Counted from the first letter of the stretch, positions 32,124-54,757 are shown. The stretch is 64,000 bases of DNA from Alphaproteobacteria bacterium (GCA_030433215.1 JAUIMC010000009.1:62849-126848), one strand, 5' to 3'. Notes: generated from the letters alone by a model not told the origin. Numbers and translations are program-made.

Positions 32124-32157
32124 AAAAAAGCCGGCGCTGTTAGCGCGCCGGCTTTTT
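32124..32157. terminator. Bidirectional terminator between convergent genes
   Basis: A6-GCCGGCGC..GCGCCGGC-T5. Confidence 0.75.
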
Positions 32158-32179: not shown

Positions 32180-33112
32180 TTATTGCGCGCCGGTCTCCCA
32201 GGGCGTCGGCATGTAATAAGGCAGCGAAGTCGCCACGCCTTCGGCGCGCACCACCGTATCGCCCTCGATCTTCACAAGCTCGGCCACAAGCCGGCTCATG
32301 GGATAGGGGCGTTGCAGCGTCGCCGTTTCGCCGCCCACCGTCGGGAAGGTCGCCTGCTCGGCGGGCAGGTCCTGCACGCTGATGGCGAGCACGAGGCCGC
32401 GGCTGCGGTCGACCACAGGAAAGCGCCGGTCGCGAATGCGGTTCACCGGGGCGAAGAGGCCCGCTTCGAAAGCGGACGCGCAATGCGGTTCCGGCGGCGT
32501 TACATCGAGCTCCGCCGAGGTGATCGCAACGCCGTTCTCCACCATCTCGCAGGACGGCGCGAAGTCGGCGAGGAGGGCGCCGTTATTGCGCTGCTTGGTG
32601 GCGAGATAGGCGTTGGCGAGGTCGACGAGACGCTCGCGCGAACGCCGGTCGCCCCGCGAGACGGTTTGCGTCATCTCTGGCGAGATTGCGAACTCGGTCG
32701 CCTCGCCGAACGGCATCGGCCAGCGCTCGCGCGCCGCGATGACTTCGATCTCTTCGATGTCGCCTCTGGGGGCTTTCAGCCGGACGGCGCCGAAGGACGC
32801 CTCGTCATGGTCCCAGATCGTGCCGAACCACACGACATTGCCGGTTTCGGTGTCGGCCATCGCAAAGGCTTTCTGACCGGTGTCTTCGCCGGCCGATCCC
32901 CACCAGCCGTCGCCGATCATCAAGGAGACGTTGTTTTCGGTGAACAGCACCGGATCGGCCCAGGGGAGGCGGCGAAATTCCTGGTCGCCGATGGCGTCCA
33001 GCGTTTCGTCAGCCAGTTTCAGAAGGCAGGACTCGTTGCAGCGCTGGGCGGCTGCGGGCGCGGCGACGACAAGCGCGGCGGCGCCGGCGAGGAGAGCAGT
33101 AAGTTTCCGCAT
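32180..33112 (-). CDS. Secreted uncharacterised CxxxCL-family protein, type beta (NTF2-like fold suspected)
   Basis: Start ATG 33112 overlapping the upstream TAA; signal MRKLTALLAGAAALVVAAPAAA; CNESCLL, LPWAD...TENNV, RIRDRRFPVVDRSRGLV, LPYYMPTPW. Confidence 0.8.
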   Translation of the reverse strand: MRKLTALLAGAAALVVAAPAAAQRCNESCLLKLADETLDAIGDQEFRRLPWADPVLFTENNVSLMIGDGWWGSAGEDTGQKAFAMADTETGNVVWFGTIWDHDEASFGAVRLKAPRGDIEEIEVIAARERWPMPFGEATEFAISPEMTQTVSRGDRRSRERLVDLANAYLATKQRNNGALLADFAPSCEMVENGVAITSAELDVTPPEPHCASAFEAGLFAPVNRIRDRRFPVVDRSRGLVLAISVQDLPAEQATFPTVGGETATLQRPYPMSRLVAELVKIEGDTVVRAEGVATSLPYYMPTPWETGAQ

Positions 33113-34086
33113 TATTTGTCTCCTTCCGCCCAGGGCGAATGCATCCCGTAGGGCACGTAATCGAAGATCGCCTCGATGGTGTAGATCTCGCCGTCGATGA
33201 TCTTGAAGGCTTCCATGATGGTCAGCGAGTTGGGCCATTTCAGCAGGGTCTTCATGGTGCGCCCGTCTGTCAGCTCATACTCGTCGAAGGTGTTGGCGTG
33301 ATCGAAGAAGTTCATGCCGACGACAATGCCGCGCTCTTCATCGATGATCGGGTAGCGCCGTTCGCGCAACTCCTTGTTGATGCGGTAAATGCCGAGCTTG
33401 AACTGGGCCTCGCAGCCCTCGGCGACCGACGCCGAGTTATTCGAGTTTTCGGTCGCGGCCGTTGTCGAGATGCCGTTTTCTAGGCGTGAACAATCTTCCT
33501 TGAAATCCGCGAAGACCTGGCCGTTGTTGAATTCGACAGTATTGAAATAGGAATCGGCGACGGCGCGCAGGCGCGGGCGCGGGCGGCGTTGCTCTTCGGT
33601 GAGGGCTTCGGTCCAGGCCGGGTGATGCGGCTCCTTGCCGGTGCCGTGGATCAGCGGCATGCCGGTGATGCGCGCGATCACTGTTTCGGCCTCGCTGATC
33701 TCGTGTTCCTTGTTCACATGAAGACGGATGGCGAGAAAGACCAGCTTGTCATGTTCATAGGCGTGGCCGAACCAGGCGACATTGCCGGTCAGCGTGTCGG
33801 AAGCGATCATGCCGTCATCCGGGGCGGCCGCGCTCACTGTCGCCCACAACCCCTTGCCGATCGGCATTTCGACGCTGTTTTCCGTGAACTTGATGTCTTC
33901 GGAAAAGTCAGCCTGCGACGGGTCCTTGGCGTTAAGCGCCGCAACATAGGATTTGGCGAAAGATTCAAGGCAGGCGCGGTCGCAATCGCCGCGAGGCAGC
34001 GCGCTTTCCTTTCCGTAAGATTGCGCCGCCGCAGGGGCGGCGGCGGCGAGGCCCAATGTGAGGGCCGCCAGCGCATGACGCAGCAT
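33112..34086 (-). CDS. Secreted uncharacterised CxxxCL-family protein, type alpha (possibly DUF8021; label unverified)
   Basis: Signal peptide; CDRACL, FTENSV, RLENG, CEAQFKLGIY, RERRYPIIDEERG, FFDH, WPNS, EAFKI, YVPYGMHSPW. Confidence 0.82.
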   Translation of the reverse strand: MLRHALAALTLGLAAAAPAAAQSYGKESALPRGDCDRACLESFAKSYVAALNAKDPSQADFSEDIKFTENSVEMPIGKGLWATVSAAAPDDGMIASDTLTGNVAWFGHAYEHDKLVFLAIRLHVNKEHEISEAETVIARITGMPLIHGTGKEPHHPAWTEALTEEQRRPRPRLRAVADSYFNTVEFNNGQVFADFKEDCSRLENGISTTAATENSNNSASVAEGCEAQFKLGIYRINKELRERRYPIIDEERGIVVGMNFFDHANTFDEYELTDGRTMKTLLKWPNSLTIMEAFKIIDGEIYTIEAIFDYVPYGMHSPWAEGDK

Positions 34087-34284
34087 TATAATCCTCCCGA
34101 TTATCAGCGCGTCAGGCTGGCAGCGCTTTGGCGCCGTGTCATTGCCTATAGTGAAGCGCCGGCTTTGCTCACATGGAATCGCGCCGCCGGGCGCGCATGC
34201 GCATGCAAAATGGGCGTTCGCTTACGGGATTGCGGGGCCCTTCGCGGCGCGCGATAGTTCGCATCTGCAATATCGGGATGTCTT

Positions 34285-34812
34285 ATGCGCAAAATCTTGA
34301 TGACGATGGTCTTCAGCATGCTGGCGATTTCCTGTGCGCCGGACGGTCAGGGAACGGCGCTCGAAGAGCGCGTGCGCCGGCTTGAGGACGAGAAAGAGAT
34401 CCGCGCGCTGCTGGTGCGCTATGGCGAATATCTCGATGCGAAGGATTACGCCGGCTACGCCTCGCTCTTCGCCAGCGACGGCGTGTCGACCACCGGCTTC
34501 GGCAGTGCAACAGGACCGGCGGCCATCGAGGTGCTATTGGAAGAGAATATGGGCGCGCCGCCGCCCGGCTATATCAATAAGGACCGGCTCCACCTGATGA
34601 CGACCATGATTGTCGATGTCTCGGGCGATGCTGCGACCGCGCAGTCGCGCTATACGGTTTTCGATAAATCCGAGGGAGGACGGCCTGTCCCTTTGCATGC
34701 CGGACGATATGCGGACGTGCTTGTGCGCGAAAACGGGGCGTGGAAACTGAAATCACGGACTTCGGCCGGCGTCATTCCCTACCGGGCGCCGCCGCAAGCC
34801 GGTAAAAACTGA
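34285..34812 (+). CDS. SnoaL_4/NTF2-like lipoprotein (short type)
   Basis: Lipobox LAISC; RLEDEKEIRALLVRYGEYLD, RLHLMTT, GRYADVLVRENGAWK. Confidence 0.85.
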   Translation: MRKILMTMVFSMLAISCAPDGQGTALEERVRRLEDEKEIRALLVRYGEYLDAKDYAGYASLFASDGVSTTGFGSATGPAAIEVLLEENMGAPPPGYINKDRLHLMTTMIVDVSGDAATAQSRYTVFDKSEGGRPVPLHAGRYADVLVRENGAWKLKSRTSAGVIPYRAPPQAGKN

Positions 34813-34910
34813 GAAAGGCCGGCCCTTGTGGCGCAAGTCTGGGGTTCTCTCACGGCAATGAACTGCACAGGGCGAGGACGGACAAACGAAGCTTGGGAAT
34901 ATCTGGAGAG

Positions 34911-35504
34911 ATGACGATGCGGACTGCATTTCTGGCTATCGCTTTCGCCCCGCTCATGGCGGCCGCCTTGCCGGCCTGTTCGGCGGGCAACGCTGCGAAT
35001 GAAGAACTCGCGCAGCGCGTCCAGGCGCTTGAAGACGAAAAAGAGGTCAAGCGGGTGCTGGTCGAATATGGCGAGTTCCTCGATGCGCGCGACTATCATG
35101 CCTATGCGTCGCTCTTCGCCAGCGACGGCGTCTGGAGCGGCGGCTTCGGCACCTATACGGGGCCGGCGGCGATCGAGGCCATGCTCGAAGAAAATATGGG
35201 TTCCCATGCGGATGATTACATCAACAAGGAAAATTTCCACCTGAACACGACCATGGTCGTCGATGTGGACGGCGACACGGCGAAAGCGCGCTCGCGTTAT
35301 CTGTTCTTCGTCGCCTCGCCGGAAAACCGGCCTGTGGTCGCGCTCGCAGGGCGCTATGAAGACGTTTTGGTCCGCGAGGACGGGGCCTGGAAAATCAAGA
35401 CCCGCAAATCCCATGGCGTGATCCCTTACCGGGACGGCAACAAGCCGCCCCCGGCCCAGCCCCCGGCGGACATCAGCGACGCCCTGGACCGGGACCAGGA
35501 CTGA
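34911..35504 (+). CDS. SnoaL_4/NTF2-like lipoprotein (short type), tandem paralogue
   Basis: Lipobox LPAC; ALEDEKEVKRVLVEYGEFLD, NFHLNTT, GRYEDVLVREDGAWK. Confidence 0.85.
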   Translation: MTMRTAFLAIAFAPLMAAALPACSAGNAANEELAQRVQALEDEKEVKRVLVEYGEFLDARDYHAYASLFASDGVWSGGFGTYTGPAAIEAMLEENMGSHADDYINKENFHLNTTMVVDVDGDTAKARSRYLFFVASPENRPVVALAGRYEDVLVREDGAWKIKTRKSHGVIPYRDGNKPPPAQPPADISDALDRDQD

Positions 35505-35663
35505 CCGGTCGGCCCGCAATAGTTTAGTTTCTAACGATCTCGCGGTTTAGCGGCAAAAAGGGCGATGAAAAGCGCCGGCGGCCGGGCCTTAGCCGATGTT
35601 CTCCATGGACAAAGCCTGCGGTTCGCAATCAATCGTGTTTAGCGAGACTATGGCGACTAGCGC

Positions 35664-35692
35664 CCCGCCAGTTTAGTTCGTAAACTGGCGGG
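35664..35692. repeat. Perfect 12-bp inverted repeat between convergent genes
   Basis: CCCGCCAGTTTA-GTTCG-TAAACTGGCGGG. Confidence 0.6.
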
Positions 35693-35761
35693 ATGGTTGA
35701 CCGGGCGATACGAAAAGACTCGGGCGTTAGGGGCTGGAAAGATATGGCGCTGGGCCATCCG

Positions 35762-36196
35762 CTAGAGGCCGGCGGGCAGGTCCGCCGTCACTTCACGCCG
35801 CTTGAAGCGCCAGCCCTCCGGCGTGGGGACGATAATGTCGCTATAGCTTCCGGCGATCGCGATCCGGAGCCCGGTGTCGCTCTCGCCCCCGTTTTCACGC
35901 TGTTCGATGAGCATCCAGCGCGACCAGGCGGTCGCGTCCCGGCCGCGCATGGTGATCGCGATGCTGCCGAAAATATGGACGCAAGGCGGCGTCGCCGCGA
36001 ATTCGCGCTCGACGAAAGCGGCCAGCGCCGCGCGTCCGGCGATGACCCCGTAGCGCTCGCCGCCGATCCATTCGCCGTCCGGCGCGAACAGAGCGGCCCA
36101 GCCGGGCGCGTCCTTCAGATCAAGCAGGCGGCCATATTCAGCCATCAGGCGCCGGATCGCTTCGGCATGCTCCGCATAGGGAATTTCCTCGGACAT
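35762..36196 (-). CDS. SnoaL_4/NTF2-like protein (short type, no signal peptide)
   Basis: EAIRRLMAEYGRLLD, CVHIFG, GSYSDIIVPTPEGWRF. Confidence 0.8.
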   Translation of the reverse strand: MSEEIPYAEHAEAIRRLMAEYGRLLDLKDAPGWAALFAPDGEWIGGERYGVIAGRAALAAFVEREFAATPPCVHIFGSIAITMRGRDATAWSRWMLIEQRENGGESDTGLRIAIAGSYSDIIVPTPEGWRFKRREVTADLPAGL

Positions 36197-36387
36197 GGCG
36201 TTTCCTTGTTTGCCGATTTTGGGCGCGACGGATCCCGCCTCGCGAGAGTTTTGCAGGCCGTGCGCGCCGTCGCAAGACTTTCTGCGGATAAAGCAGTCAG
36301 CATAGGAACCATTCTGGAGGCGCAGGCCGATCATGCGCCGCGCACACGAAACGAAGTCTCTTCCATCAGCAGCGACGGAGGGCCGGC

Positions 36388-37377
36388 ATGAGAAAATTCC
36401 TCAACAACCCCGCCGACGCCGTCGATGAAAGCCTGCGCGGTTTTGCGCGTTGCCATGCCGATCTCGTGGAGCTCGTGGAGCGGCCGCGTTACGTCAAACG
36501 TCAGCGCCTGACGCAAGGCAAGACGGCGATTATCTCCGGCGGCGGATCGGGTCATGACCCGCTTCACGCCGGGCTCGTAGGGCGCGGCATGCTCGACGCG
36601 GCTGTGCCGGGCGAAATTTTCTCCTCGCCGTCAGTAGAACAGATCCTGGCGGCGGCGGAAGCGGTCGGCGGCGAGGCGGGGCTTTTGTGCCTCATCAAGA
36701 ATTATTCCGGCGACATCATGAATTTCGAACTTGCGATGGAGATGTTCGACCGGCCCCATGCGAGCGTCATTATCGAAGACGATATCGGCGCGGCGGGCGG
36801 CGATGACACGGTTGGCCGGCGCGGCGTCGCCGGCACGGTCGTGGTCGAAAAGCTCGCCGGGGCCGCCGCTGAACGCGGCGAGGGGCTCGAGGCCTGCGCC
36901 GAGATCGCGCGCCGGGCTGCGGCGGCGACGCGCACTATCGGCGTGGCGCTCGGCGGCTGCCAGGTTCCGTCCGCGGACAAGGCCAACCTTGAGCTTGCGC
37001 CCGGCGAGATGGAAATCGGCATCGGCATTCATGGCGAGCCCGGGCGGCGGCGCGCGCCCATCGCGCCGGCGAATGAGATCGTCGAGGAGCTTATCGAGGC
37101 GCTCATCGCCGATTTTTCTCCGTCTCCTGACGATCCGCTGCTGCTGTTCGTCAACGGGCTCGGCGGAACCCCGCCCATGGAAACCTATATCATCTACGAT
37201 GCGGCGGCGCGCATGCTGGCGGCGCGGGGACTGACCGTCGCCCGCTCGCTCGTTGCGCCGCTGGTGACTTCGCTCGAAATGCCGGGGGCGTCGATTACGC
37301 TGACGAAGATGGAGGACGGGTTCCTCGATCTCTGGGACGATCCGGTGGTGACGCCGGGACTGAGATGGGGCGCATGA
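36388..37377 (+). CDS. dhaK: PEP-dependent dihydroxyacetone kinase subunit K
   Basis: SGGGSGHDPLHAG, GEIFSSP, KNYSGDIMNF, GRRGVAG, EIGIGIHGEPG, TSLEMPGASIT. Confidence 0.92.
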   Translation: MRKFLNNPADAVDESLRGFARCHADLVELVERPRYVKRQRLTQGKTAIISGGGSGHDPLHAGLVGRGMLDAAVPGEIFSSPSVEQILAAAEAVGGEAGLLCLIKNYSGDIMNFELAMEMFDRPHASVIIEDDIGAAGGDDTVGRRGVAGTVVVEKLAGAAAERGEGLEACAEIARRAAAATRTIGVALGGCQVPSADKANLELAPGEMEIGIGIHGEPGRRRAPIAPANEIVEELIEALIADFSPSPDDPLLLFVNGLGGTPPMETYIIYDAAARMLAARGLTVARSLVAPLVTSLEMPGASITLTKMEDGFLDLWDDPVVTPGLRWGA

Positions 37378-38027
37378 GCCTCGCGCAATCCCATAATCCC
37401 GCCGAGAATACCGGCGCCGCGCTCGAGCTGCTCGACGTGCTTTGCACTCTGTTGCTTGGCGCCGAAGACGAGCTCAACGGGCTCGACCGCGCTATCGGCG
37501 ACGGCGACCATGGCGGCAATCTCGCCCGCGCGTCGCGCAGCCTGTCAGAGCTTCGTCCCGAACTCGCTGAGCTTTCCATGGGCGAGGCCGTGACGCGCGC
37601 CGGCCGCGCGGTGGTGATGAGCGTCGGCGGCGCTTCGGGCCCGCTTTACGGAACCCTGCTGATGGAAATGGGCAAGGCGCTGCCTGACGAGCCGGGGCCT
37701 GGCGACTGGGCCGCGGCTTTTGCGGCGGGCGTCGACGGCGTCGCCCGGCGCGGCCGCTCCGCTGAGGGCGACAAGACCATGCTCGATGTGCTCGCGCCGG
37801 CGTCGCGCGCGCTTTCGGAAGAAGCGTCCGCAGATTTGCACGAAGCGCTCGCGGCGATGCGCGCGGCGGCGGAAGACGGCTTTGAAACATCGCGCGGCTT
37901 GCGCGCGAAACGCGGACGCGCCGCCTATGTGGGCGAGCGGTCCGTCGGACATGACGATCCCGGAGCGCGGTCGGCGCTGTTGTGCGTCGGTGCGGTTGCA
38001 GATTTTTTAGGGGAGAACAAGGGATGA
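37374..38027 (+). CDS. dhaL: Dihydroxyacetone kinase ADP-binding subunit L
   Basis: LDRAIGDGDHGGN, VGGASGPLYG, GDKTMLDV, RGRAAYVGERSVGHDDPGA; ATGA overlap with dhaK. Confidence 0.92.
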   Translation: MSLAQSHNPAENTGAALELLDVLCTLLLGAEDELNGLDRAIGDGDHGGNLARASRSLSELRPELAELSMGEAVTRAGRAVVMSVGGASGPLYGTLLMEMGKALPDEPGPGDWAAAFAAGVDGVARRGRSAEGDKTMLDVLAPASRALSEEASADLHEALAAMRAAAEDGFETSRGLRAKRGRAAYVGERSVGHDDPGARSALLCVGAVADFLGENKG

Positions 38028-38410
38028 GCGTGGCGCTTCTCATCGTTTCGCATTCCGCCGACGTCGCGCGCGGCACGGCGGATATGGCCCGGCAGATGGC
38101 CGGCGCCGATTTGTCCATCGCCTGGACCGGCGGCAATCCCGATGGCGGTCTCGGCACGAGCCTCGCCGCGATTACCGAACAGCTTGAAGCCGTCTGGCGG
38201 GAGGAAGGCGTCGCCATTCTGGTCGATGTCGGCGGCGCGGAGATGAATTCCGAAATGGCCATCGAACAGTTCGACAAGGCGAAAGCGAAGAAAATCCGGA
38301 TATGTCAGGCGCCGCTGGTGGAAGGCGCGATCATGGCGGCGGCGGAAGCGGCGTCCGGCGGCGGCCTCGACCAGGTGTGCCGCGCAGCAGAGGAATTTTC
38401 GCACGCGTGA
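38024..38410 (+). CDS. dhaM: DHA kinase phosphotransferase subunit (EIIA-Man-like)
   Basis: LLIVSHS (phospho-His), GG..DGGLGTS, LVDVGGA, APLVEGA. Confidence 0.9.
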   Translation: MSVALLIVSHSADVARGTADMARQMAGADLSIAWTGGNPDGGLGTSLAAITEQLEAVWREEGVAILVDVGGAEMNSEMAIEQFDKAKAKKIRICQAPLVEGAIMAAAEAASGGGLDQVCRAAEEFSHA

Positions 38411-38412
38411 CC

Positions 38413-38730
38413 ATGTCGAGTTCTCAGCCTTGCGATGCCGAATGGAGGCAAGCCACCCTGACCGTCGTCGGGGCGCATGGTCTTCATGCGCGTCCCGCGA
38501 TCCGGTTTTCCCGCGTCGCGAGGGGGTATTCCGCGCGCATTCAGATCTGCGTCGCGGACGATGCGCGCTGGGTTGACGCCAAGAGCGTGGCGAAGGTGAT
38601 GGGCCTTCAGGTCGAGTCGGGCAGGAAAATTCTATTGCGTGCGGCCGGGGACGACGCCGAGGCGGCGCTGGCGGGCCTGCGCCAACTGATCGAGACGGAC
38701 CTCGCCGGCGAAGGCGAAGATGGCGGATGA
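38413..38730 (+). CDS. ptsH: HPr phosphocarrier
   Basis: GLHARPA (phospho-His), VDAKS, LRAAGDDAEAAL. Confidence 0.9.
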   Translation: MSSSQPCDAEWRQATLTVVGAHGLHARPAIRFSRVARGYSARIQICVADDARWVDAKSVAKVMGLQVESGRKILLRAAGDDAEAALAGLRQLIETDLAGEGEDGG

Positions 38731-40274
38731 CTCGGCTCCCGGGAAAGGTCGCGTCGCAGGGCGTCGCCTCCGGAACGCTGCGGCGCGACGCTGTGGCCGC
38801 GCGGAGCGCAGGCAGGCCTGCTGACAGCGTGGCAGGCGCCGTTATCGAAGCGGCATGGCAGTTGCGCGCGCTGCAAGCCGCCGCGACTAGTCTGGGTTCG
38901 GACATTCTCGAATTTCAACTCGCCCTGCTTGAGGATGACGGGCTTGTCCTCGAAATGGTCCAGAAGGGCGCCGCGCATGGCGATGCCGCGCGCGCCATCG
39001 CCGAGGTTCTGGAAGAGCAGATCGCATCCTATCGCGCTGCGGCGGATGCGCGGTTTGCGGCGCGCGCGGCCGACCTTGAGGATCTCAAAAGCCGTCTTCT
39101 CGGCGCGCTGAAAGGCGCGGCGGCGCCGGCAAGGGCGCTCCCTGCGGGCACGATCCTCATTGCAGAAGAGATGACGCCGAGCCGCTTTCTTGAGCTCGAC
39201 CGCGCGAAAATCGCCGGAATCGTTGATCAGAAGGGCAGCGAGACGAGCCATGTCGCCTTGCTGGCGCGCGCGGAAGGCGTGCCTATGCTGGTCGCCGCCG
39301 GGCCTGTCGCGGCGGAATGGGAATCGCGTCCCGCCCTGCTCGATGCGGCGCACGGGGAGCTTGTCCTCGATCCCGATGCGGCGCTCATCCGCGATCGCGC
39401 CGGTCAGGCTTCTGCACAGGATGTTCCGTCATCGGAAGGCGAAGGACCGGCGGTTCTGTCCGATGGCGAAACGGTGCGGGTCAATCTCACCGTTAATGCG
39501 CTCGCGAGCCTAGACGAGGCACCGCCCGAATGGTTCGACGGCATCGGTCTCGTCAGGACCGAGCTCTTGATTACCGATGCGGAAGAAGTTCTGAACGCCG
39601 GGCGTCAGGCGAGCCTCTACCGGCCGCTGTTCGACTGGGCGCGGGAAAAGCCGGTGACCATCCGCCTGCTCGATGGCGGCGGCGACAAACAGGTGCCCGG
39701 CTATGCGCCGCCTCCGGGCGGCGGCGGTTTTCTCGGCGTGCGCGGCGCACGGCTTTTGATGCGGCGCGGCGATGTCCTGCGCGCGCAGCTCGCGGCGATC
39801 CTTGACGCCGCGGAAGGCCGGCCGGTGCGAATCATGGCGCCCATGATTACCTTGCCGGAGGAGATGCGGTTCTTCAGAACGGAGCTTGACCGCGCCATAG
39901 ACGCGTCCGGGGCGGACCGGGTGCAGGCGGCGCTGGGCATGATGGTGGAAACCCCCGCCGCGGCGCTCGACATCGATCGTTTCGATGCGGATTTCTTCGC
40001 TCTCGGCACGAATGATCTCGCGCAATATGTCCTGGCCGCCTCGCGCGACAGCGAGGCTTTGCCGCTTGGCGGGGAAATCCCGCCGGCGGTGCTTGAGCTT
40101 GTTCGGCGGGTCGTCGAACATGGCAGGAATAAAGGGCTTGCGGTGTCCGTTTGCGGCGATGTCGCGGCGTCTGAGGAAAGCCTTGGGCGGTTTCTCGCCT
40201 GCGGGGTGCGCTCTTTCAGCATCCCTTCGCGGTTTGCGCCCCGCTTCAAGCAGTATATCAGGACAGGGCTGTGA
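38727..40274 (+). CDS. ptsI: PTS Enzyme I (PEP-protein phosphotransferase)
   Basis: GSETSHVALLARA (phospho-His), GIGLVRTE, RLLDGGGDK, LGVRGARL, GMMVETP, GTNDLAQY, VCGD. Confidence 0.9.
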   Translation: MTRLPGKVASQGVASGTLRRDAVAARSAGRPADSVAGAVIEAAWQLRALQAAATSLGSDILEFQLALLEDDGLVLEMVQKGAAHGDAARAIAEVLEEQIASYRAAADARFAARAADLEDLKSRLLGALKGAAAPARALPAGTILIAEEMTPSRFLELDRAKIAGIVDQKGSETSHVALLARAEGVPMLVAAGPVAAEWESRPALLDAAHGELVLDPDAALIRDRAGQASAQDVPSSEGEGPAVLSDGETVRVNLTVNALASLDEAPPEWFDGIGLVRTELLITDAEEVLNAGRQASLYRPLFDWAREKPVTIRLLDGGGDKQVPGYAPPPGGGGFLGVRGARLLMRRGDVLRAQLAAILDAAEGRPVRIMAPMITLPEEMRFFRTELDRAIDASGADRVQAALGMMVETPAAALDIDRFDADFFALGTNDLAQYVLAASRDSEALPLGGEIPPAVLELVRRVVEHGRNKGLAVSVCGDVAASEESLGRFLACGVRSFSIPSRFAPRFKQYIRTGL

Positions 40275-40338
40275 CAATGAATAATCAACAAGGCGCGCAT
40301 GTGAAACGCGGTCGGGCCGGGAGACGAGGAGAGCCAGC

Positions 40339-40755: not shown

Positions 40756-40884
40756 TTCCGCATTGCACCTAAACTTTTGGGCGCAAGGCCGGTTTACTTA
40801 AGCGTGGCCGGAAGATAAACTAAACTTACTAAACAATATAAAAGCGGCCAGCTTGAAAAAAGCAGGACCGCCGGGAGAGGAAAC

Positions 40885-41400
40885 GTGGCGAGTGAAGGTC
40901 CTGCCGGGAGCAGCGGGGCGGCGCTTTCGATTGAAGACCGCCTGCGCGCCCTCGAAGACGAACGCGAAATCCGTGAACTGATTATCCGCTATGCGCAGCA
41001 TCTCGACGCCCGCGACCATAAGGGGTATGCGGAACTTTTCGCCAGAGACGGGCGCTGGTCCGGCCGCATGGGCGACGCCGTCGGTCCTGAAGCGATTGAG
41101 AAAATGCTGGTCGAGGGCCTGGGGCCGACGCCGGAAGGTTTTCGCAACACCAAGAACTTTCATCTGATGAGCAATATCCTCATCGAGATCGACGGCGACA
41201 AGGCGAAAGCCGAATCGCGCCTGGTCTATTTCGCCCGCACGAAAGACGCGCGTCCCGGTCCCATGCTGGCTGGGCGCTATTTCGACGAGTTCGTGCGTGA
41301 AGACGGGCGGTGGCGCTTCAAGTTCAGACAGGTGCTCGGGGAAATCCCAACGCGCGAAGAAGCGCCGGTGCGCACGGCGGAGGAGGACGGACATGAGTGA
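40885..41400 (+). CDS. SnoaL_4/NTF2-like protein (short type, cytoplasmic)
   Basis: RLRALEDEREIRELIIRYAQHLD, NFHLMSN, GRYFDEFVREDGRWRF. Confidence 0.85.
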   Translation: MASEGPAGSSGAALSIEDRLRALEDEREIRELIIRYAQHLDARDHKGYAELFARDGRWSGRMGDAVGPEAIEKMLVEGLGPTPEGFRNTKNFHLMSNILIEIDGDKAKAESRLVYFARTKDARPGPMLAGRYFDEFVREDGRWRFKFRQVLGEIPTREEAPVRTAEEDGHE

Positions 41401-42049
41401 TCAGCGCCGCAAAGAGTTGCAGGAGCGGCTCGCCCGCCTGCAGGACGAAGCGCAAAGGCGGGAGGATTATCTCGCGATCATCCGCTGTCAGCGCGCCTAT
41501 GGCTTTTACATCGACAAGGGCTATTGGCGCGAGGCGTCCAATCTCTTCACGCAAGACGCCACCTATGAGCAGGGCGTCGACGGCGTTTACGAAGGGCGCG
41601 AGCGCATCCACGAATTGATCGTAAAGTTAAGCGGCGGCAATCCGGGGCCGGGCCTGCCTTTCGGCCAGCTTAACGAACATTTCCAGTTGCAGCCGGTGAT
41701 CACGATTGCGCAAGACGGCGCCAGCGCGCAAGGCCGCTGGCATGCGCTCTCCATGACCGGGCAATATGGCGAACACGCCGAATGGGGCGAGGGCGTTTAC
41801 GAAAACCGCTATCGCAAGGAAGACGGCGTCTGGAAAATTTCCGCCCTGCGGTTCTATCCCAATTTTGTCGCGCCCTATGAAGGCGGCTGGGCGTCGCTGA
41901 AACCCGTCGAGGGCGACTGGCGCAGTCCTGAGCTTGCGGACTTTCCGTCCGACAGGCCGCCGAGCGAAACCTACAAACCTTATCCCGACATCTTCACGCC
42001 GCCCTTTCATTACGTGCATCCGGTCACTGGCGAGGAGGTGAAGTCATGA
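41393..42049 (+). CDS. Long-type SnoaL_4/NTF2 protein, subtype A (cytoplasmic)
   Basis: AGGAGG RBS; YGFYIDKG, NEHFQLQP, YENRY..EDGVWKI, FVAPYEGGW, PPFHYVHPVTG. Confidence 0.85.
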   Translation: MSDQRRKELQERLARLQDEAQRREDYLAIIRCQRAYGFYIDKGYWREASNLFTQDATYEQGVDGVYEGRERIHELIVKLSGGNPGPGLPFGQLNEHFQLQPVITIAQDGASAQGRWHALSMTGQYGEHAEWGEGVYENRYRKEDGVWKISALRFYPNFVAPYEGGWASLKPVEGDWRSPELADFPSDRPPSETYKPYPDIFTPPFHYVHPVTGEEVKS

Positions 42050-43380
42050 GCGGGGAAGCAACGCTCGACGTCCTCGAAGCGCATCTCGAAGCGGCGGAAT
42101 TACGCCTGGCGCGGCTCGCCTCCCATGAAGCGGTGGAGCGCCTGCAACGCAGCTACGGTTATTATGTGGACAAGGGCTTATGGTCCGCGGCGGCCGATCT
42201 GTTCGCCGAGGACGGAACCTGGGAATGGGGACAGAGCGGCGTTTACAAAGGGCGCGAGCGCATCCGCGCGGCGCTGGCCCTGCGCGGTCCCGAAGGTCTC
42301 GCCCAGGGCGAGCTCAACACGCACTTCACCTGCCAGCCCATCGTCACGGTCGCCGAAGACAACATGACGGCGAAGGCGCGCTGGCGCGCCGACATGCAGC
42401 TTTGCAAGAACGGCAAGGGAAGCTGGGCTGAAGGCACCTTCGAAAACATGTACGTCAATGATGACGGCGTCTGGAAGATCGCGAGTCTGCATTTCTATGT
42501 CACGGTGGAATGCGACTACGATCTCGGCTGGGTCGTGGGCGACATGCCCATGGAAGGCCCGAGCGAGGAGCTTCCCCCCGACGAGCCGCCGACGGAAGTC
42601 TACCAATCGCTGCCCGAGGTGTATCTGCCGGCCTATCACTATCCCAATCCGGTGACCGGCGCGCAGCCGAAAAAGCCTGTGCTCCCTGATCTTCCCGCCG
42701 GCGATGATCTCGGCGCCGACATTTCCGCGCTCTCTGAACGCATCGAACGGCTTGAGGATACGCGCGCCTGCGAAAAGCTTCAGCGCGCCTATGGCTATTA
42801 TGTCGACAAGGCGATGTGGGACGATGTGGCCGATCTCTTCGTTGACGAGTCTACGCTGGAGATCGGCGGGCGCGGCGTCTTTCTCGGCAAGAAGCGGGTG
42901 CTCGAATATATGGGCATCGGCCTTGGCCCCACGGGGCCCCAGCGCGAACAGATCATCAATCACCAGCAGTTTCAGGGCATCGTCAGTGTCGCCGAAGACG
43001 GCAAGACGGCGCGCGGGCGCTGGCGCGCCTTCGTCATCGGCGGCAGCTCATGGGCGCCGGTGAACTGGGGCGATTGCCTTTACGAGAACCATTACAGGAA
43101 AATCGACGGCGTCTGGGTGATGGACAAACTTCATGCGCCCTTCACCATGTACACGCTCTATTCGGAAGGCTGGCATAAAACGACGACGCCCAATACGCGG
43201 CCCGAAAGCTTTCCGCCGCCGCCGGATCTGCCGCCGACGGTCATCTATCTGACCTATCCGAATTATTATTGCGAACCTTTCCACTATCCCAACCCGGTGA
43301 CGGGCAAGGACGCGCCGCCTCCCAATCCTGCGGCCGGCGGCGTCGCGAACATGGCCGACTTCGCAGACGATGAGCGCTGA
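42046..43380 (+). CDS. Tandem long-type SnoaL_4/NTF2 protein, subtypes B+C fused (cytoplasmic)
   Basis: Two repeats, each with YGYYVDK...H...Q...EN.Y...DGVW... and a HYPNPVTG tail. Confidence 0.87.
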   Translation: MSGEATLDVLEAHLEAAELRLARLASHEAVERLQRSYGYYVDKGLWSAAADLFAEDGTWEWGQSGVYKGRERIRAALALRGPEGLAQGELNTHFTCQPIVTVAEDNMTAKARWRADMQLCKNGKGSWAEGTFENMYVNDDGVWKIASLHFYVTVECDYDLGWVVGDMPMEGPSEELPPDEPPTEVYQSLPEVYLPAYHYPNPVTGAQPKKPVLPDLPAGDDLGADISALSERIERLEDTRACEKLQRAYGYYVDKAMWDDVADLFVDESTLEIGGRGVFLGKKRVLEYMGIGLGPTGPQREQIINHQQFQGIVSVAEDGKTARGRWRAFVIGGSSWAPVNWGDCLYENHYRKIDGVWVMDKLHAPFTMYTLYSEGWHKTTTPNTRPESFPPPPDLPPTVIYLTYPNYYCEPFHYPNPVTGKDAPPPNPAAGGVANMADFADDER

Positions 43381-44761
43381 CGCCACCCCCGCGCTGTCGT
43401 CGAAAACCCCGCCCGACTGGGCGGGCCATTCCGGCAATGTGGATGCGCTGATCGACACGCCGCGGCTCAGCCGTTTGCAGATCCAGCTCTTCGCGATCTG
43501 CGCCTTCGTTCTTTTCTGCGAGGGCTACGATCTTCAGGCGCTGGCGCTCGCCGTGCCGGATATTTCGAGCGAGTTCGGCATCGCGGCGAGCGATTTCAGC
43601 ATTGCGCTTTCGGCCAGTCTCTTCGGCATGGCGATCGGCGGCGCGGGGTTCGCGCCCATGGGCGACCGGGTGGGCAGGAAGCCCATGCTGATCCTGGCGA
43701 TGCTTCTCACCGGCGGGTCGACGCTGGCGGCGCTGATTTATCCGTCGGCCTGGTGGATCGCCCTGTGCCGCCTCGTCACCGGCATTGGCCTCGGCATCAC
43801 CACCGTCAACACCGCCGCCATCATGGGCGATTACGCGCCGGCCAAATGGCGCTTTTTCATCATGACCTTGCTCAACTGCTTCGTGCCGGGCGGCGCCTTT
43901 ACGGCGGCGTTCATCGCACCCGGGGTGATCGAGGAGATTTCCTGGCGGGGCATCTTCATCCTGGGCGGGGTCGTTCCCATCGGCGCCGCTGTTGTGGTCT
44001 GGCTCCTGGCGCCGGAATCCCTGAAATGGCTGGTCGCGGCCAAGCCGGGCGACAAGCGCATTGCGCGCATCGCCGGCGCTATTGCGCCGGGTCTCGATCC
44101 GGCGCGGCTGTTCCTGAAGAAAGGCGAAACGCAGGAACGCATCTCGGTGATCGGGTTGTTGTCGCGCGCCCATGCGGTCCGCACCCTCGTCATCTGGCTT
44201 GCCACGGCCAGCGGCGCCTTTTGTCTTTATCTCATGGTGAGCTGGCTGCCGACGATCTTGCGCGAGGCGCAATGGAGCACGGCCGATGCGCTGTTCGCCG
44301 CCGCGGCGGTGCAGCTCGGCGGCATCATCGGCAGTCTGATCATCGCCTGGGCCATCGACCGGAGGTTTCTGCTGGCGGGGCTTGTCGGCGGTTATGGTTG
44401 TTCCGCGCTCGCCCTCATGGGCATCGGTCTGTTGCCGGAAAGCGTGCTCGGCTGGAAAGTTCTTCTTTTCCTCACGGGCGCGGGCATTTCCGGCATTCAA
44501 GGCATCTGGATCTCCATCGCCGTGGTTCTTTATCCGCTTGAGCTGCGCGCCACGAGCGCGGGCTGGGTCGCGGCCATGAGCCGGATCGGCGCCGTCTCCG
44601 CGCCCATGGTCGGGGGCGCCGCGCTCGCCGCCAATGTCGAAGCCAGAAGCCTGTTGCTTGCGCTGGTTATCCCAATCGGCGCGTCCGTACTCGCGATCAT
44701 TTTCGCGCGCCGCCATTTCACCCCGCCGCCGCCGGTCCAGGAAGAGGGAGCGAAACCATGA
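43370..44761 (+). CDS. MFS aromatic acid:H+ symporter (AAHS; PcaK/BenK-like)
   Basis: FCEGYDLQAL, GDRVGRKP, YPLELRATSAGW...SRIGA; 12 TM helices. Confidence 0.85.
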   Translation: MSADATPALSSKTPPDWAGHSGNVDALIDTPRLSRLQIQLFAICAFVLFCEGYDLQALALAVPDISSEFGIAASDFSIALSASLFGMAIGGAGFAPMGDRVGRKPMLILAMLLTGGSTLAALIYPSAWWIALCRLVTGIGLGITTVNTAAIMGDYAPAKWRFFIMTLLNCFVPGGAFTAAFIAPGVIEEISWRGIFILGGVVPIGAAVVVWLLAPESLKWLVAAKPGDKRIARIAGAIAPGLDPARLFLKKGETQERISVIGLLSRAHAVRTLVIWLATASGAFCLYLMVSWLPTILREAQWSTADALFAAAAVQLGGIIGSLIIAWAIDRRFLLAGLVGGYGCSALALMGIGLLPESVLGWKVLLFLTGAGISGIQGIWISIAVVLYPLELRATSAGWVAAMSRIGAVSAPMVGGAALAANVEARSLLLALVIPIGASVLAIIFARRHFTPPPPVQEEGAKP

Positions 44762-45324
44762 CCGAAGCCGAACTCGAAAAACTCGCCGCCGATGTGCGCT
44801 ATCTCAAAGACCGGGCCGACATTCTCGACTGCATGAACCGCTATACGCGCGGCGCTGACCGGCTCGACATGGAATTGATGCTGAGCGCTTATCATGAGGA
44901 CGCCACCGACGATCGCGGCGCCTTTACGGGCGGGCCGCGCGAACGGGCGAAATGGCTGTTCAAGTTCCTGTCGAGCCTCGATCACGCCACCCATCACATC
45001 ACGAATTTCACCATCGATATCGACGGCGATATCGCCCATTGCGAAAGCTATGTGATTACGACGCTGATCCCCAAGGACTCGAAAGAAGCGACGCTCGGCA
45101 CGGCGCGCTATATCGACCGCATGGAGCGCCGCAACGGCGAATGGCGCATCGCTCATCGCGAGGCGGTGATGGATTTCCATATCACAGTGCCGACGTCGGA
45201 AATGCATCCGAATGTCATGACGGGCGCGCGCGACAAGACCGACCGGTCCTATGCGCGCCCGCTTACCCTGTCGCCGGAAGGCGAGGCGCGTATGCGCGCC
45301 GGCGTCAACACGCCGCGCGAGTAA
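44758..45324 (+). CDS. SnoaL_4/NTF2-like protein (short type, cytoplasmic)
   Basis: LKDRADILDCMNRYTRGADRLD, THHITN, RYIDRMERRNGEWRI. Confidence 0.85.
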   Translation: MTEAELEKLAADVRYLKDRADILDCMNRYTRGADRLDMELMLSAYHEDATDDRGAFTGGPRERAKWLFKFLSSLDHATHHITNFTIDIDGDIAHCESYVITTLIPKDSKEATLGTARYIDRMERRNGEWRIAHREAVMDFHITVPTSEMHPNVMTGARDKTDRSYARPLTLSPEGEARMRAGVNTPRE

Positions 45325-45339
45325 GAGGAGGAACGGCTC

Positions 45340-46221
45340 ATGCAGGTCAATGCAACAACGGCGAGCCTGGAGCGGGCGGCGCCGCGCTCGAAAAGGATCG
45401 AAGGCCTCGAGCCTTCTCGCCGGTCAAGCCTTGAACTCGGCGCCGCGCGGATCGAACGGGTGCGCGGGCTCGGCCGCCTCTATGAAGGCGCCGATGCTGA
45501 GTGCCGGCTTCTGTTTCAGACGGCCGGCGCCGCGGCGCTGACCTCGGACAGGGAGGCGGAGGCGTTTGACCTCGAGGCGGGTCACTGGGTGATCCAGCCC
45601 TTCTCCATGCTGAACATCGAACGCGGCCCCGGGTGCGAGCAATATGCGGTCGCATTCCCGGCCGGGATGCTCTCGCGCACGCTCATGGCCCATCTGCAAG
45701 GCGTTGCCGTTGCGCCTTTGCCCATCGGCGGCGCTGCGCAATTATGTCTGGAGCTCGGACGGTCCTGTCTTTCGCAGAACGAGCCGGTGAGCGCCGCCGT
45801 CGCCGAGACGCTGGGCGAGTCGCTGATTGAACTCGCCAAGCTCGCCATCATCGAACAGTCGGGCGTCAAGCGCGGCGAGACCATGCGCGAGACCGCGCGG
45901 GCGCGCATTCAGGGCTTCATTCACCGCAATTTGTCGGACCCCGATCTCACCATCGACCGGATCGCCAAGCGGATGCAGTGCACGAAACGCTATCTGCACA
46001 AGGTTTTCAGCAAGGAAGGCGAGACGCTGAACCAGTATATCTGGGCCAAGCGCCTCGATCTGTGCCGCGCGCGGCTGTCGCGCCCGGACCTTTCCGACAA
46101 GTCGATTACGGAAATCGCGTTTTCCTGCGGCTTCAGCAACGCTGCGCATTTCAGCCGCAGTTTCAGGGCCCGCTTTGGCGAGGCGCCGCGCGTCTATCGC
46201 CGCGCGGCCCTCGATAGCTAA
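45340..46221 (+). CDS. AraC family regulator (FeaR-like)
   Basis: NLSDPDLTIDRIAKRMQCTKRYLHKVF...SITEIAFSCGFSNAAHFSRSFRARFG. Confidence 0.9.
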   Translation: MQVNATTASLERAAPRSKRIEGLEPSRRSSLELGAARIERVRGLGRLYEGADAECRLLFQTAGAAALTSDREAEAFDLEAGHWVIQPFSMLNIERGPGCEQYAVAFPAGMLSRTLMAHLQGVAVAPLPIGGAAQLCLELGRSCLSQNEPVSAAVAETLGESLIELAKLAIIEQSGVKRGETMRETARARIQGFIHRNLSDPDLTIDRIAKRMQCTKRYLHKVFSKEGETLNQYIWAKRLDLCRARLSRPDLSDKSITEIAFSCGFSNAAHFSRSFRARFGEAPRVYRRAALDS

Positions 46222-46230
46222 CCCGTCCGC

Positions 46231-48057
46231 TTAGCGCGGCTGCATGCCGTAAGGCAGCTCAGAGGCGAAAGCCTCAATGCGTTCGATCTTGCCGCCGGAG
46301 AAGCGGAACAGCCCAACCACCTGCTGCGTGCGCGGATAGGGCAGGCTGCCTTTATAGGCCTCGCCCGACGCGTCGGTGAAGTCCTGTTCGCTCGCGGGGA
46401 AATCCTCAAACATCGACATGGCGACAAGGCCGCGCTGTTCGTCGACGGCGATCACGCGCGCATCGCGCACCGCCTTGACCGATTGCAGGCGCTTGCCCGT
46501 CAGCGGCGCGGCGCAGGGAGAAAGCTCCTGGCCGTTGACCGCCCACATGCAATCATCCGCGAAGTCGTCGGGCGCGGTTCCGTTCTGGGCGTTGATCGCT
46601 GCGTAAACGCGGTCGACAGCGGCCAGCATGTCCATGCGCGAGGTGCGTTCGCCTCGAGAGAGATTGGAAAATTCCGGCGCGGATTCCGGCGCCGCGAAGG
46701 GCGGTCCGTATTCCTTGCGCCGGATCACCGCTTCGACGCCGCCGATTTTGTCGCCGTCGGCGCTGACCGTGACGGCGGCCCAGGAGGGCTGGCCGTGGGC
46801 TTCGATGCGCCCGATCCACACGGCGCGGCCGAGTTCTTCGTCGGCGATGATCAAGGGATCGCCGCCGACGGCGGTGGTCGAGCCCCAGATGCCTTCGCCG
46901 ACTTGCAGGCCGACGCTGTTTTCCTCGTAACCAACCTCGTCGGCCCAGGGCAGGGTCTTCCATTCGCCGCGGTTCGGATAGGCGTTCATCACCCGCTCGG
47001 TAAGACGCGTCAGGCAGCGCGTATTGCACGCGTCCGGCGAGGAGACCGAGATCGGCGGCTTCGCCGCATCGCCGGCCCAGGGGTTGTGCATGAAATAGGG
47101 CACATAGGTGAACACCGCTTCGATCCGGCTGATCTTTGCATCCTTGATGCGGAACGCTTCGAGCAGCGTGATCGAGTTCGGCCATTTCAGCGCGGTTTTC
47201 ATCTCGCGCCCGTCGGTGAGGTTGTAGCGGTCGAACTCATTGGCGTGATCGAAGAAGCCGGTGGCGACGACGACGCCGCGCTCTTCGTCGATGAGCGGAT
47301 AGCGGCGTTCGCGAATGCGCTTGTTGATGCGGTAGATGCCGAGCTTGAACTGCGCTTCGCAGCCATCGACCAGGGTAAAGCCCTCGACGCCGTCGCGGGC
47401 GCGGGTCGTGGTGCTGATGCCGTTTTCAAGGCGGCCGCAATCCTCGTCGAAGGGCGCGAAGACCTGGCCGTCATTCAGTTCGACCGTGTCGAAATAGCTG
47501 TCGGCGATGGCGCGCATGCGCGCGCGCGGACGGCGCTCTTCCGGCGGCAGAACCTTGTTGAAGTCCGGGTCGTGCGTCATGTTTTCGGTGTCGCCGAACG
47601 GCGCGGGCAGCGCGGTCCGTCTGTGAACGACGCTTTCGGCCTCGTCGATCCGGCCGTCGGTAACGTGAATGCGCACCGCGAAGATCGCCGGCTCGCCATT
47701 CTCGATGACCGAACCGAACCAGGCCGCATTCTGGGTTTGCGTATCCGCGACTTCGAGGCCGACCGCGTCGACTTTCTCGACGGTGCCCCACAGGCCCTCG
47801 CCGAGCGGGATGACGACGTTGTTTTCGGTAAACTGGAAATCGTCGGCGGCGGGGACGGCCGAGGGCGCGCCAGCGCGCAAGGCGTCCATATATTGACCGA
47901 GCATGCCGAGGAGGCAGGCGCGGTCGCAGTCGAGTTCATAGACGGCGCTGTTCGCGCCTGGCGCCTGCGCGGCCGCGGGGGTGAGGGCAGGGGCGGCGGC
48001 GAAGATCGCGGCCCCCGACAAGGCGAGTTTCAGCTTATTCGTTTTGCTCTTGTGCAT
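46231..48057 (-). CDS. Secreted CxxxCL-family protein: fusion of types alpha and beta
   Basis: Signal peptide after ATG 48057. The N-half (CDRACL...FFDH...HNPW) is very similar to 33112-34086; the C-half (CNTRCL...LPWAD...LPYGMQP) is similar to 32180-33112. Confidence 0.85.
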   Translation of the reverse strand: MHKSKTNKLKLALSGAAIFAAAPALTPAAAQAPGANSAVYELDCDRACLLGMLGQYMDALRAGAPSAVPAADDFQFTENNVVIPLGEGLWGTVEKVDAVGLEVADTQTQNAAWFGSVIENGEPAIFAVRIHVTDGRIDEAESVVHRRTALPAPFGDTENMTHDPDFNKVLPPEERRPRARMRAIADSYFDTVELNDGQVFAPFDEDCGRLENGISTTTRARDGVEGFTLVDGCEAQFKLGIYRINKRIRERRYPLIDEERGVVVATGFFDHANEFDRYNLTDGREMKTALKWPNSITLLEAFRIKDAKISRIEAVFTYVPYFMHNPWAGDAAKPPISVSSPDACNTRCLTRLTERVMNAYPNRGEWKTLPWADEVGYEENSVGLQVGEGIWGSTTAVGGDPLIIADEELGRAVWIGRIEAHGQPSWAAVTVSADGDKIGGVEAVIRRKEYGPPFAAPESAPEFSNLSRGERTSRMDMLAAVDRVYAAINAQNGTAPDDFADDCMWAVNGQELSPCAAPLTGKRLQSVKAVRDARVIAVDEQRGLVAMSMFEDFPASEQDFTDASGEAYKGSLPYPRTQQVVGLFRFSGGKIERIEAFASELPYGMQPR

Positions 48058-54753: not shown

Positions 54754-54757
54754 CCCG

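Follow-up and report, generated by a model that had tools for sequence, protein, structure and literature searches.

Closest described systems

Lsd19 and the pair MonBI and MonBII, from actinomycete biosynthetic clusters, are cofactor-free acid-base catalysts with two cooperating NTF2-like domains, which occur as a fusion in Lsd19 and as a split pair in MonBI/MonBII. Both are polyether epoxide hydrolases related to limonene epoxide hydrolase. Catalysis is carried out by both domains in Lsd19, whereas MonBI has no activity by itself but strongly enhances that of its partner MonBII (PMC8827043). Here we describe a proteobacterial system in which secreted partner proteins likewise occur in split and in fused form, encoded within 64,000 nucleotides (nt) of DNA from an Alphaproteobacteria bacterium (GCA_030433215.1, JAUIMC010000009.1:62849-126848), the whole of which is called the window below. 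The split form is encoded by two adjacent genes, here named alpha and beta, and the single-chain form by a third gene at a distance of 12 kb, whose product is called the fused protein (Table 1). The family is DUF8021 (PF26061), and the comparisons presented here argue that alpha and beta form one unit, in which alpha is strongly constrained and beta is degenerating.

Lsd19 versus MonBI/MonBII provides the closest working analogy of the DUF8021 pair. When the predicted model of alpha was compared with the Protein Data Bank (PDB) using Foldseek, Lsd19 (4rzm and 3rga, E 6e-7) and the MonBI-MonBII complex (9kw6, E 1.5e-5) came first, followed by NsrQ, limonene epoxide hydrolase (LEH), ketosteroid isomerase (KSI) and the C-terminal domain of the orange carotenoid protein, all at a probability of 1.0. 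The likeness is confined to single domains, with target-normalised TM-scores of 0.5-0.68, whereas the whole-chain TM-scores are 0.25-0.35. DUF8021 proteins and Lsd19 share 8-10% identity and differ in domain packing; the DUF8021 proteins, moreover, appear to be exported, carry a CxxxC motif and a second Cys pair, are predicted to combine four domains rather than two, and are encoded in catabolic rather than biosynthetic clusters.

KSI, the SnoaL cyclases, NsrQ and LEH superpose on each DUF8021 domain with the same single-domain scores and probability. The candidate Tyr, Glu-Asp and Asp-His residues of DUF8021 would lie on helix 1 and the sheet, where the catalytic residues of these enzymes are found. 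In contrast with this structural likeness, no sequence relation to these enzymes was detectable, either in Pfam or by comparing the family profile with PDB sequences. None of alpha, beta and the fused protein matched the LEH or SnoaL families of Pfam at E <= 1. The catalytic set of LEH and Lsd19 consists of an Asp base and a Tyr acid; alpha has conserved Tyr, Asp and Glu residues, which may or may not lie in its pocket. An hhalign comparison of the alpha family with the six SnoaL_4 (PF13577) proteins of the window gave a probability of 0.4%, that is, no relation.

A further point of comparison is provided by LdpA and PcfL, NTF2 enzymes of sphingomonads that convert lignin dimers to stilbenes, which are then cleaved by lignostilbene dioxygenases (PMC12997858). 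These cofactor-free lyases of the NTF2 superfamily act ahead of the lignostilbene dioxygenases, and the window contains a gene of the RPE65/lignostilbene-dioxygenase type as well as many SnoaL_4 genes. The likeness drawn here is one of descriptions, and DUF8021 differs in being, as far as the genes indicate, periplasmic and heteromeric. The same paper reports no link of LdpA or PcfL to pyrroloquinoline quinone (PQQ) enzymes and mentions no periplasm among the known lignin-dimer steps of sphingomonads.

Alpha, beta and all listed homologues in a large protein collection carry a precomputed PF26061 assignment, and a homologue from Sphingobium nicotianae is labelled 'DUF8021 domain-containing protein' in UniRef. 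When alpha, beta and the fused protein were scanned against Pfam and NCBIfam, no family came up even at E <= 1, the Pfam copy used being one without the PF26061 model. Searches of PDB sequences with alpha and with the family profile gave chance matches only, our literature searches returned no mention of DUF8021, and those for a link between quinohaemoproteins and NTF2 or SnoaL proteins returned nothing relevant. PF26061 is catalogued only as a domain of unknown function, and none of the descriptions that we found includes the features set out below, namely a pair of modules that may be fused, an architecture of four domains and a link to a dehydrogenase.

A split pair and a fused protein in one window

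An earlier note on this DNA had proposed that the window holds the same pair of modules both split and fused, and the open reading frames (ORFs) bear this out. Alpha begins with a signal peptide (residues 1-21), followed by a CxxxCL motif (C35/C39) and two NTF2-like domains (residues ~35-140 and ~170-313), the second of which contains both the RLENG and the FFDH motifs. Its pairwise alignment with the N-terminal half of the fused protein extends over 297 residues at 55% identity (E 2e-114). The motif-for-motif likeness claimed for the two was found throughout: ADSYF.TVE.N.GQVFA, RLENGISTT, CEAQFKLGIYRINK, FFDHAN and WPNS each occur in both. Alpha is only 25% identical to the C-terminal half of the fused protein and 29% identical to beta (E 3e-46). 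From these comparisons, alpha, beta and both fused halves are evidently paralogues within one family of ~300-residue modules.

The position of beta required a different kind of evidence. Beta is 32% identical to the fused N-half (159 bits, E 2e-48) and 33% identical to the C-half (137 bits, E 1e-40), and because these scores are nearly equal, pairwise identity cannot place it with the C-half. Assignment through pairwise BLAST was consequently abandoned as ambiguous, and phylogeny was used instead. The earlier equation of beta with the C-half is thus left undecided by pairwise identity, where the N-half scores higher, but stands by gene order and by phylogeny. The related claim that the beta halves lack the FFDH and RLENG motifs is also true in part: His and Arg are gone from both beta and the fused C-half, and Glu additionally from the C-half, but Asn-Gly and the motif Asp are invariant in both module classes. 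The RLENG position reads MVENG in beta and WAVNG in the fused C-half, while the FFDH position reads xxD(L/F) in both; beta retains CxxxCL, ENG and the motif Asp.

The three proteins carry Sec-type leaders ending in AAAQ or AAQA, and each module of the window combines CxxxCL with another invariant pair of Cys residues (C199/C225, alpha numbering), in agreement with the description of all of them as secreted proteins with Cys pairs. The stop codon of alpha (TAA) overlaps the start codon of beta (ATG) in the sequence TAATG, and a GGAG Shine-Dalgarno sequence lies within the 3' end of alpha. This layout marks the two as products of one operon that is evidently translationally coupled, and a hairpin followed by a T-run just 3' of beta likely forms its end. 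In the fused protein, a linker of ~15 residues stands where beta has its signal peptide. The fused gene is itself closely joined to its neighbour, since its ATG (48057) lies 23 nt inside the 3' end of an upstream PQQ dehydrogenase gene.

Pairing across genomes and phylogeny

One genome per prokaryote species was scanned with alpha-specific motifs, yielding 79 related loci in Sphingomonadaceae, Erythrobacteraceae, Sphingobiaceae, Caulobacteraceae, Steroidobacteraceae, Pseudohongiellaceae, Nevskiaceae and other Alpha- and Gammaproteobacteria. Second modules were detected with a hidden Markov model of the four window modules. Wherever a locus extends beyond the alpha-like module, a second module follows immediately downstream; 37 loci are split pairs and 39 are fusions, always in the order alpha then beta, and the rest are cut by contig ends or frameshifted. 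The earlier note had made its reading depend on the co-location of alpha and beta homologues elsewhere, and this test did not refute it, since throughout the 79 loci the second module is adjacent or fused. In 32 of the 37 split loci, 56-100 nt separate the alpha stop codon from the beta CxxxC, a spacing that a signal peptide belonging to beta would just fill, and such a peptide can be seen in every case.

In an IQ-TREE phylogeny of 67 modules, all alpha and fused N-half modules fall on one side of a single branch, with 100 ultrafast bootstrap (UFBoot) and 99 SH-aLRT support, and in 100% of bootstrap trees. A quick tree of 157 modules gave the same separation of the alpha and beta classes; two long-branch solo proteins, whose placement in it was unstable, were left unused. 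By this grouping the fused halves are orthologous to the split partners. The two classes also mirror one another at finer scale: alpha and beta modules belong to matching subclades in 14/14 fusions of Sphingomonadales, 9/9 pairs of Sphingobiaceae, 11/11 gammaproteobacterial pairs, 18/18 fusions of the Steroidobacteraceae type and 12/12 members of the window's clade. The fused or split label (FN/A) changes ~5 times in the tree, at least two of the changes being forced by well-supported branches.

The split pair of the window belongs to a 12-member clade and its fusion to a 14-member clade. The two therefore represent old paralogous lineages, and these separate clades rule out the recent split of one gene. 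The 608-residue gene encodes alpha and beta as one chain and descends from another old lineage of this system.

Fold and domain architecture

The AlphaFold2 model of alpha (pLDDT 87.1, pTM 0.84) contains two successive helix and curved-sheet domains. The features of the NTF2-like fold, a long N-terminal helix and then a curved antiparallel sheet forming a cone-shaped α+β domain, are present in the predicted models, and together with the Foldseek matches at probability 1.0 they uphold the NTF2-like assignment in the earlier note and refine it to two such domains per module. As modelled, the domains of alpha are NTF2-like but pack unlike those of Lsd19. On the secondary-structure map of the model, the C-terminal domain of alpha would have its invariant Y180 on helix 1, E203 on the first strand and D262 on a later one; the set used by KSI consists of a Tyr on helix 1, a general-base Asp on strand 1 and an Asp of the oxyanion hole on the sheet.

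Profiles of the N-terminal and C-terminal domains, drawn from 154 modules, were aligned with hhalign at a probability of 95.7% (E 9.5e-9, 102 aligned columns). The alignment pairs E69-N70 with E203-N204, D97 with D249, E111-H112 with D262-H263, and E134 with E305. Each ~300-residue module is thus predicted to consist of two mutually homologous NTF2-like domains, and each pair or fusion of four. Because the two domains of a module are homologous, the system appears to have been built by two rounds of duplication, the first from a domain to a tandem module and the second from a module to alpha and beta.

The AlphaFold model of the fused protein (pLDDT 88.8, pTM 0.86; 86.6-88.8 pLDDT among five models) forms one compact body. 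Comparison with the PDB by Foldseek gave single-domain matches only, the best query-normalised TM-score being 0.16, indicating that no solved structure has the fused architecture.

Asymmetry between alpha and beta

The two members of the pair differ markedly in constraint. In 77 partnered units, modules of the alpha class share 59.5% identity on average in pairwise comparison and those of the beta class 37.7%. The alpha modules are the more similar in 99.8% of locus pairs, and the two sets of values, alpha-alpha and beta-beta, rise together (r = 0.82). The C-terminal domain shows the widest gap (71% in alpha versus 37% in beta) and the N-terminal domain the narrowest (53% versus 43%).

Decay of beta was gauged by 38 polar sites that are invariant in alpha. 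The C-halves of basal Steroidobacteraceae fusions keep 26-30 of the 38, with D-H and E-N still in place. The beta protein of the window keeps 22, with H263 replaced by L, R201 by M and H154 by I. The fused C-half keeps 14 and is the most degenerate module of the window, and the most degenerate fusions overall keep 12. The sites lost differ between beta lineages. Near-universal invariants of all modules are CxxxC, E69, N70, D97, R139, R170, C199, N204, G205, C225, R241, D262 and Y313. These figures agree with the earlier proposal of one constrained and one degenerate partner, and the asymmetry is the pattern expected if a homodimer-like ancestor was duplicated and one copy decayed to a structural partner.

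Conserved neighbours and natural fusions of beta

The gene directly upstream of the fused gene encodes a protein whose best PDB match is 1kv9 (E 9e-203), a type II quinohaemoprotein alcohol dehydrogenase, an enzyme that carries PQQ and haem c. Homologues of this dehydrogenase occur in ~50 of the 79 loci. An NHL propeller of the 'Pizza'/PknD-like type, with weak SGL and strictosidine-synthase-like Pfam matches, adjoins the pair in 51/79 loci, and a TonB-dependent receptor does so in 28/79. The recurrent operons, written with a, b and F for alpha, beta and fusion, are PQQ>NHL>a>b> in Gammaproteobacteria, NHL>F> in Steroidobacteraceae, PQQ>F> in Erythrobacteraceae and the window, and a>b-NHL>SnoL x3>PQQ> in Sphingobiaceae.

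In eight loci of Sphingobiaceae and relatives (L015, L019, L021, L025, L027, L031, L032 and L050), the NHL propeller is joined in frame to the C-terminus of beta, as in L019:8942-10768, and protein P0372 has the same architecture. SnoaL_4 takes the corresponding C-terminal position on beta in two metagenome proteins (P0180 and P0196), where it is homologous to the second of two lipoproteins encoded divergently from alpha (window 34893-35504). A solo-type DUF8021 module also occurs behind an N-terminal esterase (COesterase, Abhydrolase_3 and BD-FAE matches) in the 617-residue protein P0340, which hints at ester substrates. A second apparent esterase-DUF8021 fusion, P0383, was set aside, because a signal peptide lies inside it and its C-terminus is garbled; it is probably two merged gene calls.

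Family and distribution

Alpha as a query retrieved 1,706 clusters at the 90% level, and the fused protein 2,324 representatives at the 50% identity level (E <= 1e-3). The genome to which the window belongs (3.75 Mb, 98% complete) contains eight DUF8021 modules, distributed over alpha, beta, two fusions (that of the window and one on contig 24) and two solo genes, one each on contigs 34 and 36. The contig 24 fusion (C24:219074-220897) is 71% identical to that of the window and has two SnoaL_4 genes beside it, repeating the alpha-SnoaL_4 neighbourhood of the window.

Among 151 genomes sampled from the same order, four contain DUF8021 members, and the pair occurs only in the genome of the window, the other three having a contig-34-type solo gene alone. 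The alpha/beta and fused systems are likewise absent from each of the 17 genomes sampled in the same genus. Culturable carriers elsewhere include Aurantiacibacter hainanensis H149 (both systems), Sphingobium xanthum NL9 and Sphingobium nicotianae H33 (beta-NHL fusion). Since close homologues (~80% identity) are found in Steroidobacteraceae and in unclassified metagenome-assembled genomes (MAGs) of Proteobacteria, this distribution suggests that the gene cluster spreads horizontally.

The contig-34-type solo (C34:32505-33449) has neither signal peptide nor CxxxC, although RVENG and FIDH are kept. It lies directly upstream of a quinohaemoprotein dehydrogenase paralogue in 4/4 genomes of the genus that carry it (L080, L081 and L082 being the others), an odd topology for the partner of a periplasmic enzyme. 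CxxxC is present in every exported module and in none of the leaderless ones, a distribution that fits a periplasmic disulfide.

Proposed function and alternatives

The explanation that we favour overall, by a modest degree, is that alpha and beta act as one periplasmic catabolic unit together with the dehydrogenase pathway. Its components differ in strength. Very probably, given the fused model and the pairing across genomes, alpha and beta form a heterodimer-like periplasmic body of four NTF2 domains arranged as in the fused protein, derived by duplication from a homodimeric ancestor. With somewhat less assurance, we take it as probable that the C-terminal domain of alpha holds the main active or ligand site, with Y180, E203-N204, D249, D262-H263 and E305 as candidate residues, and that beta is a diverging, partly degenerate partner that stabilises alpha and anchors other periplasmic catalysts, the NHL propeller and the SnoaL_4 lipoprotein.

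What the unit does is proposed more tentatively, from the analogy with described NTF2 enzymes. A hydrophobic plant-derived compound would enter the periplasm through the TonB-dependent receptor, and the type II quinohaemoprotein alcohol dehydrogenase would handle an alcohol or carbonyl intermediate. Alpha-beta would act on this intermediate as a cofactor-free acid-base catalyst, by isomerase, dehydratase, lyase or ether/epoxide hydrolase chemistry. The imported compound would in this way be jointly trimmed in the periplasm, and the products would be imported for cytoplasmic SnoaL_4 and stilbene-oxygenase steps. We consider that this scheme could well apply, though its chances fall a little short of even. 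The periplasmic enzymes of the cluster need no soluble cofactor, using PQQ and haem c, a metal, or nothing. As to the substrate, our guess is lignin- or lignan-type aromatic dimers, with sterol-like alcohols second, because LdpA and PcfL make stilbenes for lignostilbene dioxygenases (PMC12997858) and the window contains an RPE65/lignostilbene-dioxygenase-type gene. The flanks of the window showed no genes of steroid catabolism.

A bolder extension, which we hold to be rather doubtful, would make beta a pseudoenzyme hub that binds alpha through its N-terminus and the NHL propeller or SnoaL_4 through its C-terminus. Several cofactor-free catalysts would thereby be tethered in a periplasmic multi-enzyme assembly working with the dehydrogenase. 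Such an assembly would provide a hitherto undescribed route by which plant aromatic oligomers taken up through TonB, or hydrophobic alcohols of a similar kind, are degraded ahead of import, and would make DUF8021 a new NTF2 family with catalytic function that arose through two rounds of duplication.

Several observations weigh against the periplasmic catabolic unit. The split pair of the window and its clade adjoin divergent SnoaL_4 lipoprotein and TonB-dependent receptor genes, not PQQ dehydrogenase or NHL genes. Solo DUF8021 members occur on contigs 34 and 36 of the same genome, which bears on the obligate partnership suggested in the earlier note, and since the solo of contig 34 is leaderless yet adjoins a periplasmic-type dehydrogenase, a physical complex with the dehydrogenase is unlikely to be universal. 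The beta protein of the window keeps E-N-G, D249 and D262 and may still be active. Sampling with alpha motifs left out beta genes without an alpha partner and may have slightly inflated alpha conservation, although such a bias cannot produce a 22-point gap between partners of shared history. The substrate assignment has gene neighbourhood as its only basis. We found no characterised DUF8021 member, and the catalytic residues of alpha are candidates only; some secreted NTF2-like domains do no more than bind ligands (PMC3924330).

The last two points lead to the strongest alternative, in which the four-NTF2 body is a non-catalytic binder, solubiliser or escort. Like a binding module attached to varied catalytic domains, it would take over a hydrophobic substrate at the TonB-dependent receptor and deliver it to the dehydrogenase, the propeller and esterases. 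Secreted NTF2-like domains of unknown function have been read as ligand-binding domains fused to hydrolases (PMC3924330), and the joining of DUF8021 modules to unrelated catalytic domains (NHL propeller, SnoaL_4 and the esterase of P0340) would suit such a role. Across Alpha- and Gammaproteobacteria, however, alpha has an exceptionally large number of invariant polar and charged residues (~30 invariant polar positions, and 71% identity in the C-terminal domain), more like an active site than a greasy carrier pocket. The E-N, D, D-H and E set recurs in both domains and resembles the acid-base sets of NTF2 enzymes, and eight paralogous modules in one genome fit the diversification of an enzyme for different substrates. 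We therefore judge an escort role to be unlikely, if the most credible of the alternatives.

Somewhat less credible still is a pair of two active subunits, in which alpha and beta, or both fused halves, catalyse consecutive steps as do the two catalytic domains of Lsd19 (PMC8827043), with beta specialised. The high site retention of basal Steroidobacteraceae C-halves, including D-H and E-N, speaks for this arrangement, as do the RIENG...FFDH-like motifs in both halves of protein P0246, the E192-N193, D235, D248 and E291 kept by the window's beta, and two invariants specific to the beta class, W51 and H102. Against these stand the much faster evolution of beta than of alpha in 99.8% of comparisons and the low retention in the fused C-half of the window (14/38). 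The sites lost by beta, moreover, vary by lineage, as under relaxed constraint and not as in a new conserved active site.

That alpha and beta are independent paralogues, tandem duplicates that each work separately as homodimers and whose fusions are incidental, is very improbable. Solo family members do exist, but this alternative is at odds with universal adjacency in fixed order, repeated fusion or fission in that same order, mirrored phylogenies with a degenerate beta, and the compact, confidently predicted fused model.

The least probable alternative, that the pair binds scavenged periplasmic PQQ and loads apo-dehydrogenases, would explain the many invariant Arg residues, the adjacency of DUF8021 to PQQ dehydrogenase genes and the apparent shortage of PQQ synthesis genes described below, but a family present in 4/151 genomes of the order, and as a pair in one of them, is rare whereas PQQ enzymes are common, and eight diverged modules with NHL, SnoaL_4 and esterase fusions misfit a cofactor chaperone.

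As far as it is testable, the earlier interpretation of an alpha/beta periplasmic system is supported, and the system adds an uncharacterised variant to those of the NTF2 enzymes, one in which a partner subunit is decaying. DUF8021, a sizeable family without known function, thereby becomes a defined system, an exported alpha/beta unit predicted to have four NTF2 domains, with a candidate active domain, named residues, and conserved genetic links to type II quinohaemoprotein alcohol dehydrogenases and the NHL propeller. Beta would document the stepwise decay of a homodimer-like state to a pseudo-subunit. If catalytic, the periplasmic unit would contribute a cofactor-free step to the bacterial catabolism of plant-derived hydrophobic compounds, and would offer enzymologists a natural series from split to fused and from active to degenerate.

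Other genes of the cluster

The features of the window discussed above are listed in Table 1. The cluster extends over ~27-60 kb and contains the TonB-dependent receptor, two Amidohydro_2 enzymes, beta and alpha, at least 13 SnoaL_4-domain genes, dhaKLM with an Enzyme I-like gene, a major facilitator superfamily (MFS) transporter, two AraC regulators, two quinohaemoprotein dehydrogenases, two propeller proteins and the RPE65/lignostilbene-dioxygenase-type gene, the last of which was detected in 9/79 loci. The second Amidohydro_2 enzyme has a weak, sub-threshold Pfam match to a twin-arginine translocation (TAT) signal.

Table 1. Positions of the DUF8021 genes and associated features, numbered from the first nucleotide of the window
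Feature	Position	Strand	Basis
Alpha, secreted DUF8021 protein, 324 residues	33112..34086	(-)	ORF, precomputed PF26061, AlphaFold2/Foldseek, alignment, hhalign
Beta, secreted DUF8021 paralogue, 310 residues, own signal peptide	32180..33112	(-)	ORF, pairwise comparison, alignment
Fused protein, 608 residues	46231..48057	(-)	ORF
Fused protein N-module, residues 1-332 including signal peptide, alpha class	47062..48057	(-)	Comparison, model, tree
Fused protein C-module, residues 333-608, beta class	46231..47061	(-)	Comparison, model, tree
Terminator-like hairpin and T-run just 3' of beta	32134..32146	(-)	Consensus scan only
Type II quinohaemoprotein (PQQ and haem c) alcohol dehydrogenase, directly upstream of fused gene	48035..50248	(-)	
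NHL-type six-bladed beta-propeller lipoprotein	51523..52506	(+)	
Two SnoaL_4 (single NTF2 domain) lipoproteins, divergent from alpha	34285..35504	(+)	
TonB-dependent receptor	27048..29621	(+)	
Second type II quinohaemoprotein alcohol dehydrogenase of the cluster	54731..56896	(+)	

The genome has 6-7 PQQ dehydrogenase paralogues. A search of this 98%-complete assembly for PqqC gave no PF03070 match, with controls responding, and no PqqE candidate reached the cut-off of its family, so that scavenged PQQ may be what the organism relies on.

The dhaK/dhaL/dhaM and Enzyme I-like block (window 36388-40274), assigned from translations only, occurs in 3-5 of the 79 loci and therefore lies outside the core of the DUF8021 system; a by-product with three carbons (dihydroxyacetone) may explain its presence.

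Three long SnoaL_4 genes (A, B and C) occur as sets in ~30/79 loci, and the window contains two such sets (41393-43380 and 52503-54753). In one of them B and C are fused (42046-43380, with two SnoaL_4 stretches), making this a second split and fused NTF2 system within the same cluster.

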